Shown here one piece after another: positions 408 to 57,760 of a DNA stretch of 64,000 nucleotides; the first letter of the stretch is position 1, and each line of letters starts with the position of its first letter. Source of the DNA: Escherichia coli (GTDB lineage Bacteria > Pseudomonadota > Gammaproteobacteria > Enterobacterales > Enterobacteriaceae); the NCBI RefSeq assembly GCF_003334785.1, contig NZ_QOWV01000002.1. One strand, 5' to 3'. The notes beneath the pieces were generated by a model. That model made no database searches. It saw only the letters and a program-made list of their open reading frames with translations, and was not told the origin of the DNA. The translations under genes were made by a program, and so were the position numbers.

Positions 408-1613
408 ATGACCCTACCAAAAATTAAACAGGTTCGCGCCTGGTTTACTGGCGGTGCGACAGCAGAAAAAGGCGCTGGCGGCGGTGATTATCACGACCAG
501 GGGGCGAATCACTGGATAGACGATCATATTGCCACCCCGATGAGTAAATACCGCGATTACGAGCAGTCACGCCAGTCATTTGGCATTAACGTTCTTGGCA
601 CGTTGGTTGTTGAAGTCGAAGCAGAAAACGGCCAGACCGGATTCGCCGTTTCGACAGCCGGTGAAATGGGCTGTTTTATTGTCGAAAAACATCTTAACCG
701 TTTCATTGAGGGTAAATGTGTCAGTGATATCAAACTGATCCACGATCAAATGCTCAGTGCCACCCTGTATTACTCCGGCTCTGGTGGCCTGGTGATGAAT
801 ACGATTTCTTGTGTCGATCTGGCTCTGTGGGATCTGTTCGGCAAAGTGGTCGGGCTTCCGGTTTATAAACTTTTAGGCGGCGCTGTTCGTGATGAGATTC
901 AGTTCTACGCCACAGGTGCGCGTCCGGATCTGGCAAAAGAGATGGGCTTTATCGGTGGCAAAATGCCGACGCACTGGGGGCCACATGATGGCGATGCGGG
1001 GATCCGCAAAGATGCCGCTATGGTCGCGGATATGCGTGAAAAATGCGGTGAGGATTTCTGGTTAATGCTCGACTGCTGGATGAGTCAGGACGTGAACTAT
1101 GCGACCAAACTGGCCCACGCTTGCGCGCCCTATAACCTGAAATGGATCGAAGAGTGCCTGCCGCCACAGCAGTATGAAAGTTATCGCGAACTGAAACGCA
1201 ACGCGCCAGTCGGAATGATGGTCACCAGCGGTGAGCACCACGGCACACTGCAATCTTTTCGTACGCTTTCAGAAACCGGTATCGACATTATGCAGCCGGA
1301 TGTTGGCTGGTGCGGTGGTTTAACCACGCTGGTGGAAATTGCCGCAATCGCCAAATCCAGGGGGCAACTGGTGGTGCCGCACGGTTCGTCTGTTTACTCT
1401 CACCATGCGGTGATCACCTTCACCAATACGCCATTCAGCGAATTCCTGATGACCAGCCCGGATTGTTCAACGATGCGTCCGCAGTTTGACCCGATTCTGC
1501 TCAATGAGCCGGTTCCGGTGAATGGTCGTATTCATAAATCAGTGCTTGATAAACCCGGTTTTGGCGTCGAACTCAATCGTGACTGCAATTTGAAACGCCC
1601 CTACAGCCACTAA
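408..1613 (+). CDS. rhmD: L-rhamnonate dehydratase (enolase superfamily)
   Basis: ORF 396..1613; preferred ATG at 408 (MTLPKIK…) has GGAG 6 nt upstream; ATG at 396 is an alternative. Protein recognised as RhmD/YfaW. Confidence 0.92.
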
Positions 1614-1669
1614 TCACTCCGGGCGTTGCTGTGACAACGGTAACGCCCACATATTCTAAGGAGCTTTTT

Positions 1670-2958
1670 ATGAGCACCGCTTTGCTTGACGCCGTGGTGA
1701 AGAAAAACCGTGTGCGTTTAATTCCGTTTATGTTGGCGCTGTATGTGCTGGCGTTTCTCGACCGTTCGAATATCGGTTTTGCCAAACAGACCTACCAGAT
1801 TGATACCGGGTTGAGTAATGAAGCTTATGCGCTGGGAGCAGGCATTTTCTTTGTGGTATATGCGTTTCTGGGTGTTCCGGCGAATCTTTTGATGCGCAAA
1901 CTGGGGGCCAGAACCTGGATTGGTACGACAACACTGCTGTGGGGATTTCTTTCGGCAGCCATGGCATGGGCCGATACTGAAGCGAAATTTCTGATAGTTC
2001 GCACTCTGCTTGGTGCTGCGGAGGCCGGATTTTTCCCTGGTATGATTTATCTCACCTCGCAATGGTTTCCGCAGCGTAATCGCGCCAGCATTATGGGGCT
2101 GTTCTATATGGGCGCACCGCTGGCGTTAACACTGGGATCACCGCTTTCCGGCGCGCTGTTGGAGATGCATGGATTTATGGGGCATCCCGGCTGGTTCTGG
2201 ATGTTTGTGATTGAAGGATTGTTGGCAGTCGGTGCTGGGGTATTCACATTCTTTTGGCTTGATGACACACCGGAGCAGGCACGTTTTCTGAGTAAACAAG
2301 AAAAAACGTTGCTTATCAATCAACTGGCAAGTGAAGAACAACAGAAAGTGACTTCTCGGCTGAGCGATGCGCTGCGTAATGGCCGAGTCTGGCAACTAGC
2401 GATTATCTACCTGACCATTCAGGTGGCGGTTTACGGATTAATTTTCTTCTGCCGACCCAGGTTGCGGCATTGCTGGGAACAAAAGTGGGCTTTACAGCGT
2501 CGGTGGTCACCGCCATTCCGTGGGTTGCGGCCTTGTTTGGGACCTGGCTTATTCCGCGCTATTCCGATAAAACCGGCGAACGGCGTAATGTCGCAGCGCT
2601 GACATTACTGGCGGCGGGCATTGGTATTGGTCTGTCCGGGCTGCTTTCTCCAGTAATGGCGATCGTAGCGCTGTGTGTTGCAGCTATCGGGTTTATTGCC
2701 GTGCAGCCAGTGTTCTGGACGATGCCGACACAACTGCTTTCCGGTACGGCGCTGGCTGCGGGAATTGGTTTTGTAAACCTGTTTGGTGCAGTGGGCGGGT
2801 TTATTGCCCCGATCCTGCGCGTGAAAGCAGAAACGTTATTTGCCAGCGATGCGGCGGGATTACTGACGCTGGCAGCGGTGGCGGTCATCGGTTCGCTGAT
2901 TATTTTCACTCTGCGTGTAAATCGCACTGTTGCGCAGACCGACGTGGCACATCATTAA
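1670..2958 (+). pseudogene. rhmT: L-rhamnonate MFS transporter, reading frame broken by a 1-bp deletion near 2447-2451
   Basis: ATG at 1670 with AAGGAG at 1657-1662. Frame 2 ORF (1631..2602) and frame 1 ORF (2470..2958) together make one MFS transporter; the join is at ttcttc|tgccg where one base is missing, so frame 2 runs into …FFCRPRLRHCWEQKW… while frame 1 continues the real protein (LPTQVAALLGTKVGF…). Confidence 0.8.
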
Positions 2959-2975
2959 ATAGGTTAAGGAACACG

Positions 2976-3779
2976 ATGAACGCATTATTAAGCAATCCCT
3001 TTAAAGAACGTTTACGCAAGGGCGAAGTGCAAATTGGTCTGTGGTTAAGCTCAACGACTGCCTATATGGCAGAAATTGCCGCCACTTCTGGTTATGACTG
3101 GTTGCTGATTGACGGGGAGCACGCGCCAAACACCATTCAGGATCTTTATCATCAGCTACAGGCGGTAGCGCCCTATGCCAGCCAACCCGTGATCCGTCCG
3201 GTGGAAGGCAGTAAACCGCTGATTAAACAAGTCCTGGATATTGGCGCGCAAACTCTACTGATCCCGATGGTCGATACTGCCGAACAGGCACGTCAGGTGG
3301 TGTCTGCCACGCGCTATCCTCCCTACGGTGAGCGTGGTGTCGGGGCCAGTGTGGCACGGGCTGCGCGCTGGGGACGCATTGAGAATTACATGGCGCAAGT
3401 TAACGATTCGCTTTGTCTGTTGGTGCAGGTGGAAAGTAAAACGGCACTGGATAACCTGGACGAAATCCTCGACGTCGAAGGGATTGATGGCGTGTTTATT
3501 GGACCTGCGGATCTTTCTGCGTCGTTGGGCTACCCGGATAACGCCGGGCACCCGGAAGTGCAGCGAATTATTGAAACCAGTATTCGGCGGATCCGTGCTG
3601 CGGGTAAAGCGGCTGGTTTTCTGGCTGTGGCTCCTGATATGGCGCAGCAATGCCTGGCGTGGGGAGCGAACTTTGTCGCTGTTGGCGTTGACACGATGCT
3701 CTACAGCGATGCCCTGGATCAACGACTGGCGATGTTTAAATCAGGCAAAAATGGGCCACGCATAAAAGGTAGTTATTGA
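2976..3779 (+). CDS. rhmA: 2-keto-3-deoxy-L-rhamnonate aldolase (HpcH/HpaI family)
   Basis: ATG at 2976 ([24 protein letters not shown]…) preceded by AAGGAA; the ORF-track entry 2673..3779 is an upstream extension overlapping rhmT. 267 aa. Confidence 0.92.
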
Positions 3780-14460: not shown

Positions 14461-14662
<202 letters not shown>

Positions 14663-21416: not shown

Positions 21417-21520
<104 letters not shown>

Positions 21521-41944: not shown

Positions 41945-44794
41945 TTGAAATACCTTGCTTCTTTTCGTACAACCCTGAAAGCCTCGCGCTACATGTTCAG
42001 AGCATTGGCGTTAGTGCTCTGGCTGTTGATTGCTTTTTCATCCGTTTTTTACATCGTTAATGCGTTACATCAGCGAGAATCGGAAATTCGTCAGGAATTT
42101 AATCTGAGTTCCGATCAGGCTCAGCGCTTTATTCAACGCACCTCTGATGTGATGAAAGAGCTGAAGTACATCGCCGAAAATCGCTTATCGGCAGAAAACG
42201 GTGTGCTTTCCCCGCGTGGACGAGAAACGCAGGCGGATGTGCCTGCGTTTGAACCGCTGTTTGCCGACTCCGATTGTTCCGCAATGAGTAACACCTGGCG
42301 AGGTTCTCTGGAGTCATTGGCGTGGTTTATGCGCTACTGGCGCGATAATTTTTCTGCGGCTTACGATCTAAACCGGGTATTTTTAATCGGCAGCGATAAC
42401 CTCTGCATGGCCAATTTCGGTCTGCGTGATATGCCAGTGGAACGCGATACCGCGTTGAAAGCTTTGCATGAACGCATCAATAAATATCGAAATGCACCAC
42501 AAGATGATAGCGGCAGTAACCTCTACTGGATCAGCGAAGGTCCGCGCCCTGGCGTCGGGTATTTTTACGCGTTGACGCCAGTTTATCTGGCGAACCGGTT
42601 GCAGGCGCTTTTGGGTGTCGAGCAGACCATCCGGATGGAGAACTTTTTCTTACCGGGTACGTTGCCGATGGGGGTTACCATTCTTGATGAAAATGGTCAT
42701 ACCCTGATTTCGCTTACCGGACCAGAAAGTAAAATTAAGGGCGATCCTCGCTGGATGCAGGAACGCTCCTGGTTTGGCTATACGGAAGGGTTCCGGGAGC
42801 TGGTGCTGAAGAAAAATCTGCCACCCTCATCGCTAAGCATCGTGTATTCGGTGCCGGTTGATAAGGTGCTGGAACGCATTCGCATGTTGATCCTTAACGC
42901 AATTTTGCTGAATGTGCTTGCCGGAGCTGCATTGTTTACTCTCGCACGGATGTACGAGCGACGTATTTTCATTCCGGCGGAAAGCGACGCCCTGCGACTG
43001 GAAGAACATGAGCAGTTCAATCGCAAGATTGTCGCCTCCGCGCCAGTGGGTATCTGCATTTTGCGTACCGCTGATGGCGTCAATATTTTAAGTAACGAAC
43101 TGGCGCATACCTATCTCAATATGCTTACGCATGAGGACCGCCAACGACTGACGCAAATTATCTGTGGGCAGCAGGTCAATTTTGTTGATGTCCTGACCAG
43201 CAACAATACCAATCTGCAAATCAGCTTCGTCCATTCGCGCTATCGTAATGAAAACGTGGCCATTTGTGTGCTGGTGGATGTTTCTTCGCGCGTGAAGATG
43301 GAAGAGTCGTTGCAGGAGATGGCACAAGCAGCGGAACAGGCGAGCCAGTCAAAATCGATGTTCCTTGCCACCGTCAGTCATGAGCTGCGAACGCCGCTGT
43401 ATGGCATTATCGGTAACCTGGATCTGTTGCAAACCAAAGAGTTACCGAAAGGCGTCGATCGGCTGGTGACGGCAATGAACAACTCTTCCAGCCTGTTGTT
43501 GAAAATTATCAGCGATATTCTCGATTTCTCGAAGATTGAATCGGAACAGTTGAAGATCGAACCGCGTGAGTTTTCACCGCGTGAAGTGATGAACCACATC
43601 ACCGCCAACTATTTACCGCTGGTGGTACGCAAGCAGTTAGGCTTGTACTGCTTTATTGAACCGGATGTGCCAGTGGCCTTAAATGGCGACCCGATGCGTT
43701 TACAGCAGGTCATCTCCAACCTGTTGAGTAACGCCATAAAATTCACCGATACCGGCTGTATAGTTTTGCATGTTCGCGCGGATGGCGATTATCTCTCTAT
43801 CCGTGTTCGCGATACCGGCGTGGGGATACCGGCGAAAGAAGTGGTGCGCTTGTTTGATCCCTTCTTCCAGGTCGGAACGGGCGTACAGCGTAATTTCCAG
43901 GGGACCGGTCTGGGTCTGGCGATTTGTGAAAAACTGATCAGCATGATGGACGGCGATATCTCGGTAGATTCAGAACCGGGAATGGGCAGCCAGTTTACCG
44001 TGCGTATTCCGTTGTACGGCGCTCAGTACCCGCAGAAAAAAGGCGTGGAAGGGTTGAGTGGTAAACGCTGCTGGCTGGCGGTCCGCAATGCGTCGCTCTG
44101 TCAGTTCCTGGAAACCAGTTTGCAGCGCAGCGGCATCGTCGTTACAACATACGAAGGGCAGGAACCGACTCCCGAAGATGTGTTGATCACTGACGAGGTA
44201 GTGAGTAAAAAATGGCAGGGCAGAGCGGTAGTGACCTTCTGTCGTCGCCATATTGGTATTCCGCTGGAGAAAGCGCCAGGGGAGTGGGTACACAGTGTGG
44301 CTGCTCCGCATGAGCTACCGGCATTGTTGGCGCGTATTTATTTGATCGAGATGGAGAGCGACGATCCTGCTAACGCTCTGCCGTCAACGGACAAAGCGGT
44401 CAGCGATAATGACGATATGATGATTCTGGTCGTGGATGATCATCCGATTAACCGGCGTTTGCTGGCAGATCAGTTGGGATCGTTGGGCTATCAATGTAAA
44501 ACCGCGAATGATGGCGTCGATGCGCTTAATGTACTTAGCAAGAATCATATTGATATCGTGCTTAGCGACGTCAACATGCCAAATATGGATGGTTACCGCT
44601 TGACGCAACGCATTCGTCAGTTGGGACTGACGTTGCCGGTAATCGGAGTAACTGCTAATGCGTTGGCTGAAGAGAAGCAGCGGTGTCTGGAGTCCGGTAT
44701 GGACAGCTGCCTGTCGAAGCCGGTAACGCTGGATGTGATAAAACAGACGCTGACGTTATATGCCGAGAGGGTCAGGAAATCGCGGGATTCGTAG
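41945..44794 (+). CDS. rcsC: Hybrid sensor kinase RcsC
   Basis: 949-aa ORF with HisKA H-box (SHELRTPL) and C-terminal receiver domain. Confidence 0.95.
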   Translation: MKYLASFRTTLKASRYMFRALALVLWLLIAFSSVFYIVNALHQRESEIRQEFNLSSDQAQRFIQRTSDVMKELKYIAENRLSAENGVLSPRGRETQADVPAFEPLFADSDCSAMSNTWRGSLESLAWFMRYWRDNFSAAYDLNRVFLIGSDNLCMANFGLRDMPVERDTALKALHERINKYRNAPQDDSGSNLYWISEGPRPGVGYFYALTPVYLANRLQALLGVEQTIRMENFFLPGTLPMGVTILDENGHTLISLTGPESKIKGDPRWMQERSWFGYTEGFRELVLKKNLPPSSLSIVYSVPVDKVLERIRMLILNAILLNVLAGAALFTLARMYERRIFIPAESDALRLEEHEQFNRKIVASAPVGICILRTADGVNILSNELAHTYLNMLTHEDRQRLTQIICGQQVNFVDVLTSNNTNLQISFVHSRYRNENVAICVLVDVSSRVKMEESLQEMAQAAEQASQSKSMFLATVSHELRTPLYGIIGNLDLLQTKELPKGVDRLVTAMNNSSSLLLKIISDILDFSKIESEQLKIEPREFSPREVMNHITANYLPLVVRKQLGLYCFIEPDVPVALNGDPMRLQQVISNLLSNAIKFTDTGCIVLHVRADGDYLSIRVRDTGVGIPAKEVVRLFDPFFQVGTGVQRNFQGTGLGLAICEKLISMMDGDISVDSEPGMGSQFTVRIPLYGAQYPQKKGVEGLSGKRCWLAVRNASLCQFLETSLQRSGIVVTTYEGQEPTPEDVLITDEVVSKKWQGRAVVTFCRRHIGIPLEKAPGEWVHSVAAPHELPALLARIYLIEMESDDPANALPSTDKAVSDNDDMMILVVDDHPINRRLLADQLGSLGYQCKTANDGVDALNVLSKNHIDIVLSDVNMPNMDGYRLTQRIRQLGLTLPVIGVTANALAEEKQRCLESGMDSCLSKPVTLDVIKQTLTLYAERVRKSRDS

Positions 44795-44993
<199 letters not shown>

Positions 44994-48644: not shown

Positions 48645-48737
48645 AAAAAAAACCGAATGCGAGGCATCCGGTTGAAATAGGGGTAAACAGACATTCAGAA
48701 ATGAATGACGGTAATAAATAAAGTTAATGATGATAGC
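48645..48737 (-). ncRNA. micF: micF antisense small RNA
   Basis: The minus strand reads gctatcatcattaactttatttattaccgtcattcatttctgaatgtctgtttacccctatttcaaccggatgcctcgcattcgg followed by T8; matches micF as I recall it, including the terminal stem-loop and U-tract; divergent from ompC. Confidence 0.75.
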
Positions 48738-48892
48738 GGGAGTTATTCTAGTTGCGAGTGAAGGTTTTGTTTTGACATTCAGTGCTGTCAAATACTTAAG
48801 AATAAGTTATTGATTTTAACCTTGAATTATTATTGCTTGATGTTAGGTGCTTATTTCGCCATTCCGCAATAATCTTAAAAAGTTCCCTTGCA

Positions 48893-55054: not shown

Positions 55055-56713
<1,659 letters not shown>

Positions 56714-57075
56714 TGATGCGCCACATCCGGCATGGTATGCCGGATGTGGCGTATGCTGATAAGACGCGCCAGCGTCGCATCAGGCAACCGGCTCGGGCGT
56801 TAGATGTTGGATGCGGCGTAACCGCCTTATCCAACCTACGGGGTGGAGCACTTCACAGCGGTGTAGGCCTGATAAGACGCGCCAGCGTCGCATCAGGCAA
56901 CCGGCTTGGGCGTTAGATGTCGGATGCGGCGTAACCGCCTTATCCGACCTACGGGGTGGAGCACTTCACAGCGGTGTAGGCCTGATAAGACGCGCCAGCG
57001 TCGCATCAGGCAACCGGCTCGGGCGTTGGATGTCGGATGCGGCGTGACCGCCTTGTCTGACCTACGGGGTGCCGC
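56714..57075. repeat. Terminator hairpin followed by three tandem REP/BIME units of about 95-100 bp
   Basis: Perfect hairpin gcgccacatccggcat-ggt-atgccggatgtggcg (56718-56751), then three near-identical copies of gataagacgcgccagcgtcgcatcaggcaaccggc…gatgcggcgtaaccgccttatcc…acggggtggagcacttcacagcggtgtaggcct; these produce the spurious overlapping ORFs 56713..57274. Confidence 0.8.
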
Positions 57076-57088
57076 ACTTCACGGCAGT

Positions 57089-57577
57089 TTAGCGAACTAC
57101 CGCGTTGTCAATTTTCTCTTCCGCCTTCCAGACGCGGTACTTCACATCTACATTGTCTGGCGTATACACCACGATCGGCAGCTTGCTGTTGTAACGCAGC
57201 ATTCCAGCATCGCCCAGATACGCGGTGACAAATTTCTTCTCTTTCTTGCCATCCGGGCAGGCCATCATCGTTGAAACCGGGGAACTGACTTTATCAAAGA
57301 CATAATAATCATAGCCCCAGCCTTCCAGCGTTTTGTTTTCCAGCTTCCCGCCGAGACGATGCAAATTGCAATCGACTTCCAGCGTCTGACCGATTAACAG
57401 TTCTACTTTCAGGGTAGATTCATCTTCTTGCGGGGTTAACTGAATCACCTGACGCTTCATCCCTTTTTCAGCTTGTGGATAAGGCGCGATTTTTTCCAGT
57501 GGCTGGACGCTTTCTGCCGCCCAGGCGGAAGTGGTAGCGAAAGCGGCAAACAATACTGCAGGTAGAATGGTCTTCAT
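57089..57577 (-). CDS. eco: Ecotin (periplasmic serine protease inhibitor)
   Basis: ORF 57089..57598; start set at [20 protein letters not shown] (57577); 162 aa. Confidence 0.93.
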
Positions 57578-57760
57578 TTTTTTGCTTTCCTTCTTCATTT
57601 ATAGGTTTTCACCGATGATGTCGCTGAAGGTTAACATATTCATCAGATTTATTAATTTGCTTTATGAATAACTTAAAGAACATTCAGACAATTTTACCTG
57701 CTCTTTTAGTGTTAAATTCTAATGAGAGAGCAAACCAGCAGAAATATCTCTGGTGAATCA

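Follow-up and report, generated by a model that had tools for sequence, protein, structure and literature searches.

The window analyzed here, a stretch of 64,000 nucleotides from Escherichia coli (contig NZ_QOWV01000002.1), carries the convergent genes mqo (plus strand, 55067-56713) and eco (minus strand, 57089-57598), and a tandem array of repeats fills the 3' intergenic region that they share (ORF list, RefSeq). The features of the locus are as follows.

55067-56713, plus strand: mqo, malate:quinone oxidoreductase coding sequence, TAA stop codon at 56711-56713 (ORF list; RefSeq, in K-12 and in strain WCHEC005784, which is 100% identical).
56716-56754: locus-specific palindrome that begins 3 nt past the mqo stop codon, with 18-nt arms (56716-56733 and 56737-56754) that carry one mismatch (inverted-repeat search).
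56756-56868: unit 1 (type A), 113 bp; Y at 56751-56785, linker at 56786-56805, Z-type at 56806-56839 (GTTGG...CCAAC), spacer at 56840-56862.
56869-56981: unit 2 (type B), 113 bp; Y with GTAG foot at 56863-56898, linker at 56899-56918, Z-type at 56919-56952 (GTCGG...CCGAC), spacer at 56953-56975.
56982-57088: unit 3 (terminal type C), 107 nt up to the eco stop codon, with homology to 57094; Y at 56976-57011, Z-type at 57032-57065.
57070-57086: small 5-bp hairpin (TGCCG-CACTTCA-CGGCA), 2 nt from the eco stop codon, predicted in folds of both strands.
57089-57598, minus strand: eco, ecotin coding sequence, stop codon at 57089-57091 (ORF list, RefSeq annotations).
56713-56916, 56811-57047 and 56906-57274, plus strand: three overlapping ORFs of 67, 78 and 122 aa, respectively (ORF list).

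The start of eco varies in RefSeq between a coding sequence of 489 nt (162 aa) and one of 510 nt (169 aa) that begins at an upstream ATG (MKKESKK-). This discrepancy is also found within genomes of the K-12 lineage (MG1655 versus MC1061, OV2 and GM4792). In PM4 (NZ_CP074001.1), an IS4-family element with an ISVsa5 / IS10-like transposase lies in the eco coding sequence at 1602-3428, outside the REPs and adjoining an array of 5 units.

Tandem Repeats Finder detected 2.9 copies of a 113-bp period between 56756 and 57082 (95% matches, score 591). A gap-free repeat search delineated three in-register copies (56756-56868, 56869-56981 and 56982-57094), the second and third of which are 97% and 88% identical to the first. 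These results confirmed the threefold tandem array between mqo and eco given in the preliminary description of this DNA, and replaced its unit of roughly 98 bp with one of 113 bp. The copies had also been said to differ by only a few substitutions, which is accurate for copies 1 and 2 (3 differing sites) but not for copy 3, which differs from both at 12-13 sites. Furthermore, the array does not end at 57075 as first thought, since repeat homology extends to 57082-57094 and reaches the stop codon and the last codon of eco, across which it is weak.

Each unit is composed of a Y palindromic unit, a 20-nt head-to-head linker, a Z-type palindromic unit and a 23-nt tail-to-tail spacer. On the plus strand, the Y unit reads GTAG-GCCTGATAAGACGCGCCAGCGTCGCATCAGGC and the Z-type unit reads GTCGGATGCGGCGTAACCGCCTTATCCGAC-CTAC, thereby placing the GTAG foot of the latter on the minus strand. 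This GTAG/CTAC foot is present in five of the six palindromic units; in the first Y, it is GTAT instead and overlaps the right arm of the mqo-proximal hairpin. Internal bulges occur as in the Rfam consensus. Two of the 3 sites that distinguish units 1 and 2 are the paired Z-stem positions 53 and 78, and thus form a compensated pair. In unit 3, the Z-type stem contains two non-standard pairs on the eco-sense strand, and the spacer holds the small hairpin at 57070-57086. This small hairpin is restricted to the terminal unit type, as internal units have GGAGCACTTCACAGCGG at this position. Both strands of the region fold far better than shuffled sequences (z about -6).

The Y core GCCTGATGCGACGCT has three exact matches on the minus strand of the array, and the Z core has three matches on the plus strand with 1-2 mismatches each. 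Over the whole window, both motifs exceed chance expectation by far (16 versus 0.74 expected for Y, 7 versus 0.27 expected for Z). The Y and Z units alternate in inverted orientation, and the order Z2-linker-Y fits the naRNA4 model of Rfam (RF02564, gathering score 59.5 bits). On the minus strand, all three units scored above this threshold, with 61.9 bits for unit 1 (56754-56836), 76.0 for unit 2 (56866-56949) and 63.7 for unit 3 (56979-57062), and the matches spanned model positions 1-77. Plus-strand scores reached only 41.6, 39.1 and 21.7 bits. The linker in the match is 7 nt longer than in the model (84-nt match versus 77-nt model), and the match of unit 3 contains 2 non-canonical pairs. 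The alternating orientation and the naRNA4 scores bear out the REP/BIME identity proposed earlier. That the Z units may be of type Z2 is suggested indirectly, by the naRNA4 covariance model, which was built on REP325 (Y/Z2) units.

BIME-2 elements are defined as tandem Y and Z2 units in inverted orientation, with short linkers and no IHF-binding L motif (PMC3333891, PMC1187871). At mqo-eco, tandem copies with 20- and 23-nt linkers lie outside genes, at the 3' ends of both neighbors, and their number is polymorphic between strains. The IHF consensus WATCAANNNNTTR had no match on either strand of 56714-57088; BIME-1 was ruled out on this ground and by the tandem arrangement of the units. The alternating Y and probable Z2-type units, short linkers, tandem and extragenic arrangement and lack of an L motif therefore make the array a BIME-2 by the published definition. 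It is an allele of the K-12 locus catalogued as REP161. Length polymorphism of BIME-2 has been known since 1997 (Bachellier 1997, as cited by PMC1187871), and strain-to-strain variation in BIME-2 copy number is also described in PMC3333891.

Other elements of the same family were observed in the window. Two naRNA4-type units are located 114 bp apart on the plus strand at 44794-44870 and 44908-44984 (77.5 and 80.4 bits). Another one lies at 14544-14614 (plus strand, 76.4 bits) within a REP cluster at 14480-14661, and a Z/Y pair is found at 21427-21508. There is also a full-length Rfam match to the MicF antisense sRNA at 48645-48738 on the minus strand (114.4 bits, gathering score 79).

We compared 19 distinct unit variants. 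Stem positions were paired in 97% of the alignment cells, versus 24-43% when the partner columns were slid. Covariation in the stems was not significant in this set, as 92 of 500 shuffles reached the observed value, and only one stem pair is doubly changed, with a C.A mismatch at that pair in 7 of the 19 variants. Covariation was consequently dropped as a proof of selection on the stems. We also observed that one-sided substitutions in the Z stem (alignment columns 51-80) are mostly G.U-compatible on the plus, mqo-sense strand (15 cells, representing about 5 events), while for the C.A mismatch that is common at pair 53-78, the eco-sense strand is the G.U-compatible one; these independent events are too few to designate a selected strand. 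In one lineage (5 loci), the first Y unit carries a change of GC to TT at alignment columns 22-23 that produces a perfect palindrome. This change looks like that of the B268TT mutant, with which TnpA_REP binding and cleavage were abolished in vitro (PMC3333891). If so, the unit would be invisible to the transposase, yet the alleles concerned span 2-7 copies.

The palindrome next to mqo had been described as a perfect terminator hairpin at 56718-56751. The hairpin is real and contains a perfect stem of 15 bp (56719-33/56737-51) closed by a GGT loop, with folding energies of -34.0 kcal/mol on the plus strand and -29.8 kcal/mol on the minus strand; its perfection does not extend to the full 18-nt arms, which include the one mismatch. 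With regard to termination, a Rho-independent terminator consists of a G+C-rich stem-loop followed by a U-tract. Here the stem is present and the U-tract absent: no T-run follows the hairpin on either strand, and an intrinsic-terminator scan called nothing in the intergenic region. Conversely, the K-12 copy of the hairpin (2305063-2305108) is tabulated with the entries eco:mqo, REP161, Convergent and Log in a supplementary terminator table, in which it has only 2 U per flank (supplement of bioRxiv 10.64898/2026.03.23.713779). The format of the table matches that of a published set of bidirectional terminators, which according to the main text of the preprint was taken from an earlier study (bioRxiv 10.64898/2026.03.23.713779). 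We therefore rejected an intrinsic terminator and retained the hairpin only as a non-canonical terminator listed in the literature. Its similarity to two 5' halves of a Z unit raised the idea of a dispersed REP variant, which was ruled out by the single occurrence of the hairpin per E. coli genome. The palindrome at 56716-56754 is a probable 3'-end-forming or protective hairpin for mqo, and would mark the far end of the eco 3'UTR.

A flank-only query made of the two coding flanks matched 5,422 complete genomes, from which two evenly spaced samples amounting to 118 genomes were taken. In these 118 genomes, the mqo-eco gap measures 36+113n bp to within about 2 bp, with n ranging from 1 to 7. Single-copy alleles predominated (76 genomes), followed by alleles of six copies (26), four (6), five (5), three (3) and seven (2), and two-copy alleles were seen in searches outside this sample. 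K-12 MG1655 carries 6 units in a gap of 714 bp. Some single-copy alleles (four matches) have a gap of about 139 bp rather than 148-149 bp, which implies an intergenic deletion of about 10 bp.

Furthermore, a 50-nt query located at the internal junction between units, and specific to multi-copy alleles, was used on 5,426 complete E. coli genomes. It was found in 2,007 of them, on chromosomes only, at a median of 5 and a maximum of 11 places per genome, which correspond to 6 and 12 copies. The query agreed with arrays of known length, with 5 places in K-12 (6 units) and 2 in MC1061 (3 units). Therefore, about 63% of these genomes have a single copy and 37% have at least 2, with a median of 6 and a maximum of about 12 among multi-copy alleles. 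Single-copy alleles accompany more diverged flanks, while the flanks of multi-copy alleles are at least 98.4% identical to those of the window. The comparison across E. coli genomes that had been suggested as a check thus yielded a polymorphic number of 1 to about 12 copies, always in register. Both the 36+113n classes and the genomes with up to 11 junctions support the proposal of ongoing change in copy number.

To follow the history of the allele, each distinct unit sequence was labelled by a letter. The arrays that are most relevant to the window read as follows.

Window: A-B-C.
FMU073332, FELIX_MS724 and PM4: A-B-D-B-C, with the same hairpin variant as the window.
K-12 MG1655: A-B-D-B-E-C.

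FELIX_MS724 and PM4, the two that were sampled with the 2-kb flank query, have 2-kb flanks that are 100% identical to those of the window. Unit D, exact or with one change, also occurs in the diverged haplotypes Combat13F7, DL21, ET915 and O145, and consequently predates the lineage of the window. Given the age of unit D, the shared hairpin variant and the identical flanks, contraction is more parsimonious than expansion, and judging from these unit sequences A-B-C is best read as an in-register contraction of A-B-D-B-C by 226 bp, that is, by one D-B block. This block may have been lost by misalignment of the two identical B units. The recent expansion put forward in the preliminary description thus finds no support in this allele. 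Gains have also taken place at the locus, as indicated by adjacent identical units in DL21 (G-G) and Combat13F7 (B-B), and by the K-12 unit E, which duplicates the terminal unit. The A-B-C allele is a minority allele; its sequence in the window, taken over 1201 bp, is found with 100% identity in 19 independent complete genomes of varied host and country, and is thus no one-off artefact.

We propose that copy number changes through homology-driven misalignment of the near-identical 113-bp units, which would occur by replication slippage or by unequal recombination. RecA-independent replication slippage is efficient for direct repeats with a unit of about 113 bp, and hairpins favor slippage. Alternatively, the TnpA_REP/RAYT transposase (yafM in K-12) could drive the change by cutting CT sites in iREPs or linkers, with no part for host recombination or slippage. 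TnpA_REP cleaves and recombines single-stranded BIMEs in vitro, and models of BIME amplification exist (PMC3333891, PMC2817692); at mqo-eco, the foot retained in five of six palindromic units and the stem mismatch required for binding, retained in the Y units, would suit this enzyme. We nonetheless regard this possibility as unlikely: all alleles that we observed could have arisen through mispairing of long stretches of identity, such as the two identical B units or the segments of about 60 nt that are identical across unit boundaries, and no junction needs a cut at a special site. In addition, our literature search found no in vivo RAYT activity on chromosomal BIMEs. RAYT-mediated models and assembly collapse would each predict in-register changes just as well.

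Several laboratory derivatives of K-12 have been assembled with in-register subsets of the MG1655 array, all of them with the K-12 hairpin variant.

gb37: A-B-E-C.
MC1061, MG1655-pvir and one GM4792 record: A-B-C.
OV2: A-C.
The other GM4792 record: E-C.

The two sibling records of GM4792 therefore disagree (3 versus 2 units). These subsets represent either real deletions on laboratory time scales or collapse of the repeats in assembly. In Origami2-DE3 (NZ_CP084529.1, 1181-1774), the array comprises one unit and 20 further nt before it passes into rsxC-repeat/rsxD sequence; a 175-aa "hypothetical protein" predicted by PGAP spans this junction, which resulted from either a REP-associated rearrangement or a misassembly.

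Could collapse account for copy-number differences at large, including the three copies of the window and the 2-4 copies of the K-12 derivatives? Arrays of 375-830 bp are longer than short reads, the assemblies of MC1061, MG1655-pvir, GM4792 (3 and 2 copies), OV2 and gb37 are in-register subsets of MG1655, and that of Origami2-DE3 is visibly broken inside the array. However, natural alleles also differ in the sequence of their units (I-G-B-C, M-N-O, P-Q-R, F-G-B-D-B-B-H), and the allele of the window is shared, at 100% identity, by 19 complete genomes of diverse hosts and countries. Moreover, collapse cannot produce a one-copy state tied to diverged flanks and distinct unit variants. BIME-2 polymorphism was also demonstrated by PCR in 51 isolates before genome assembly (Bachellier 1997, as cited by PMC1187871). 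Collapse as the general explanation is accordingly quite improbable. As for the opposite concern raised earlier, that the extra copies are themselves an assembly artefact, collapse lowers copy number, and the three-copy allele recurs without a single difference in the 19 independent assemblies.

REP325, another BIME-2 array, has been described as a terminator and stabilizer, and the same study discusses REPs between convergent genes (bioRxiv 10.64898/2026.03.23.713779). By analogy, the hairpins at mqo-eco may function in RNA, as elements of the 3'UTRs. Transcripts of mqo would terminate at, or be protected by, the strong mqo-proximal palindrome located 3 nt downstream of the mqo stop codon, which would also provide a distal stop for eco transcripts. 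The array itself is probably the 3'UTR of eco, because the listed position of the eco:mqo terminator is the mqo-proximal hairpin and because the naRNA4-like orientation is eco-sense. Like REP325, it could block 3'-5' exonucleases and act as a partial, Rho-assisted terminator. Copy number would then set the length of the eco 3'UTR, from about 105 nt with one unit to about 330 nt in the window and about 670 nt in K-12. At the DNA level, DNA gyrase binds and cleaves BIME-2 (Espeli and Boccard 1997, as cited in PMC2817692), and BIME-2 arrays as gyrase sites might suit a convergent gene pair. We infer all functional steps at mqo-eco by analogy with REP325 and other BIMEs. The effects of REPs are strongly dependent on context, and terminal REPs have no general effect on half-life (bioRxiv 10.64898/2026.03.23.713779).

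The K-12 derivative assemblies, which show 4, 3 or 2 units instead of 6, led us to consider the array as a fast, deletion-prone "dial". Its copy number would shift within laboratory time scales, and an eco 3'UTR made longer or shorter, with more or fewer hairpins, would measurably tune the expression of ecotin or Mqo between otherwise identical strains. This idea is speculative, and we would not expect it to hold. An even less probable proposal is that each unit encodes a nucleoid-associated RNA of the naRNA4 kind, which would bind HU and condense the chromosome, with the array setting the dosage of these RNAs. All three units do exceed the Rfam gathering score, and HU- and naRNA4-dependent condensation of the nucleoid was reported by Qian et al. 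2015, who suggested REP325 homologues as substitutes (PMC4550694). However, in a 2026 preprint whose group shares an author with the 2015 study, REP325/naRNA4 is described as acting locally on its operon without measurable nucleoid compaction (bioRxiv 10.64898/2026.03.23.713779). At mqo-eco, about 63% of the E. coli genomes possess just one unit, and the Rfam match mainly recognizes the Y plus Z2 REP hairpins, which are also present elsewhere in the window.

The three overlapping ORFs between 56713 and 57274, which had been called spurious, all exist in the ORF list and have start codons, yet a protein-coding role can be practically excluded: since 3 does not divide the period of 113, each repeat copy is read in another frame, the ORFs come and go with copy number, the last and longest one enters eco in antisense orientation, the region yielded no promoter-like site, and RefSeq annotates no ORF in the array at the intact loci that we fetched. 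The concern that an automated annotator could miscall them as a small gene was not borne out either, as none is annotated in the 100%-identical strain or at these other loci. The lone "hypothetical protein" found (Origami2-DE3) spans the broken or rearranged rsxC/rsxD junction rather than an intact array, and was set aside as a case of spurious annotation within the array.

Taken as a whole, the locus is very probably best explained as a BIME-2-type REP161 array whose copy number changes by homology-driven events and whose hairpins would play an RNA-level role as a 3'UTR. The mqo-eco array is an ordinary, already catalogued repeat of E. coli. The preliminary description was correct in that it had noticed a known element; it was wrong on the length of the unit and probably wrong on the direction of change. 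As the REP element is already catalogued and the length polymorphism of BIME-2 is textbook knowledge, the locus is of little importance beyond housekeeping. Our literature search found no report of mqo-eco as a VNTR or MLVA marker, no MLVA scheme using it, and none naming mqo together with REPs. In practice, annotators should keep ignoring the ORFs of the array. Assemblies can collapse or break here, and the mqo-eco length offers a quick check of quality or strain identity for K-12 derivatives. Furthermore, natural alleles of 1 to about 12 units in near-identical backgrounds constitute a ready-made allelic series, which could test the recent proposal that REP arrays serve as terminators and stabilizers for both genes of a convergent pair.

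Compared with known systems, the array shares with BIME-2 the alternating Y and Z units, the latter probably of type Z2, the short linkers, tandem and extragenic location at gene 3' ends, absence of an IHF-binding L motif, and strain-dependent copy number at a fixed locus, the K-12 allele (REP161) having 6 units. Nothing essential sets it apart: the allele of the window has 3 units instead of the 6 of K-12, its first Y foot is the degenerate GTAT, and its Z units read GTCGG or GTTGG instead of the consensus GCCGG, a change that is compensated on the other arm in units 1 and 2.

With REP325/naRNA4 (RF02564, the yjdM-yjdN BIME-2 array), it has in common the two-hairpin Z2-linker-Y unit, a constant spacer and a score above the gathering threshold. 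Like REP325, the mqo-eco array is probably transcribed as a 3'UTR, in which it would contribute to termination and protection. In contrast, the mqo-eco linker is 7 nt longer, the array counts three units versus six in REP325, and it lies between convergent genes whereas REP325 is located inside a tandem operon.

As in REPIN/RAYT systems, the basic unit is an inverted REP pair that carries a GTAG foot and the sort of stem mismatch that TnpA_REP recognizes. Unlike them, mqo-eco exhibits tandem gain and loss at a fixed locus instead of dispersal, and homology alone can explain its variation. Finally, the array resembles bacterial minisatellites or VNTRs by its in-register gain and loss of a unit of about 100 bp, its potential for strain typing and its possible instability among laboratory derivatives. 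In contrast to an anonymous repeat, its unit belongs to a genome-wide palindromic family with RNA- and DNA-level activities.
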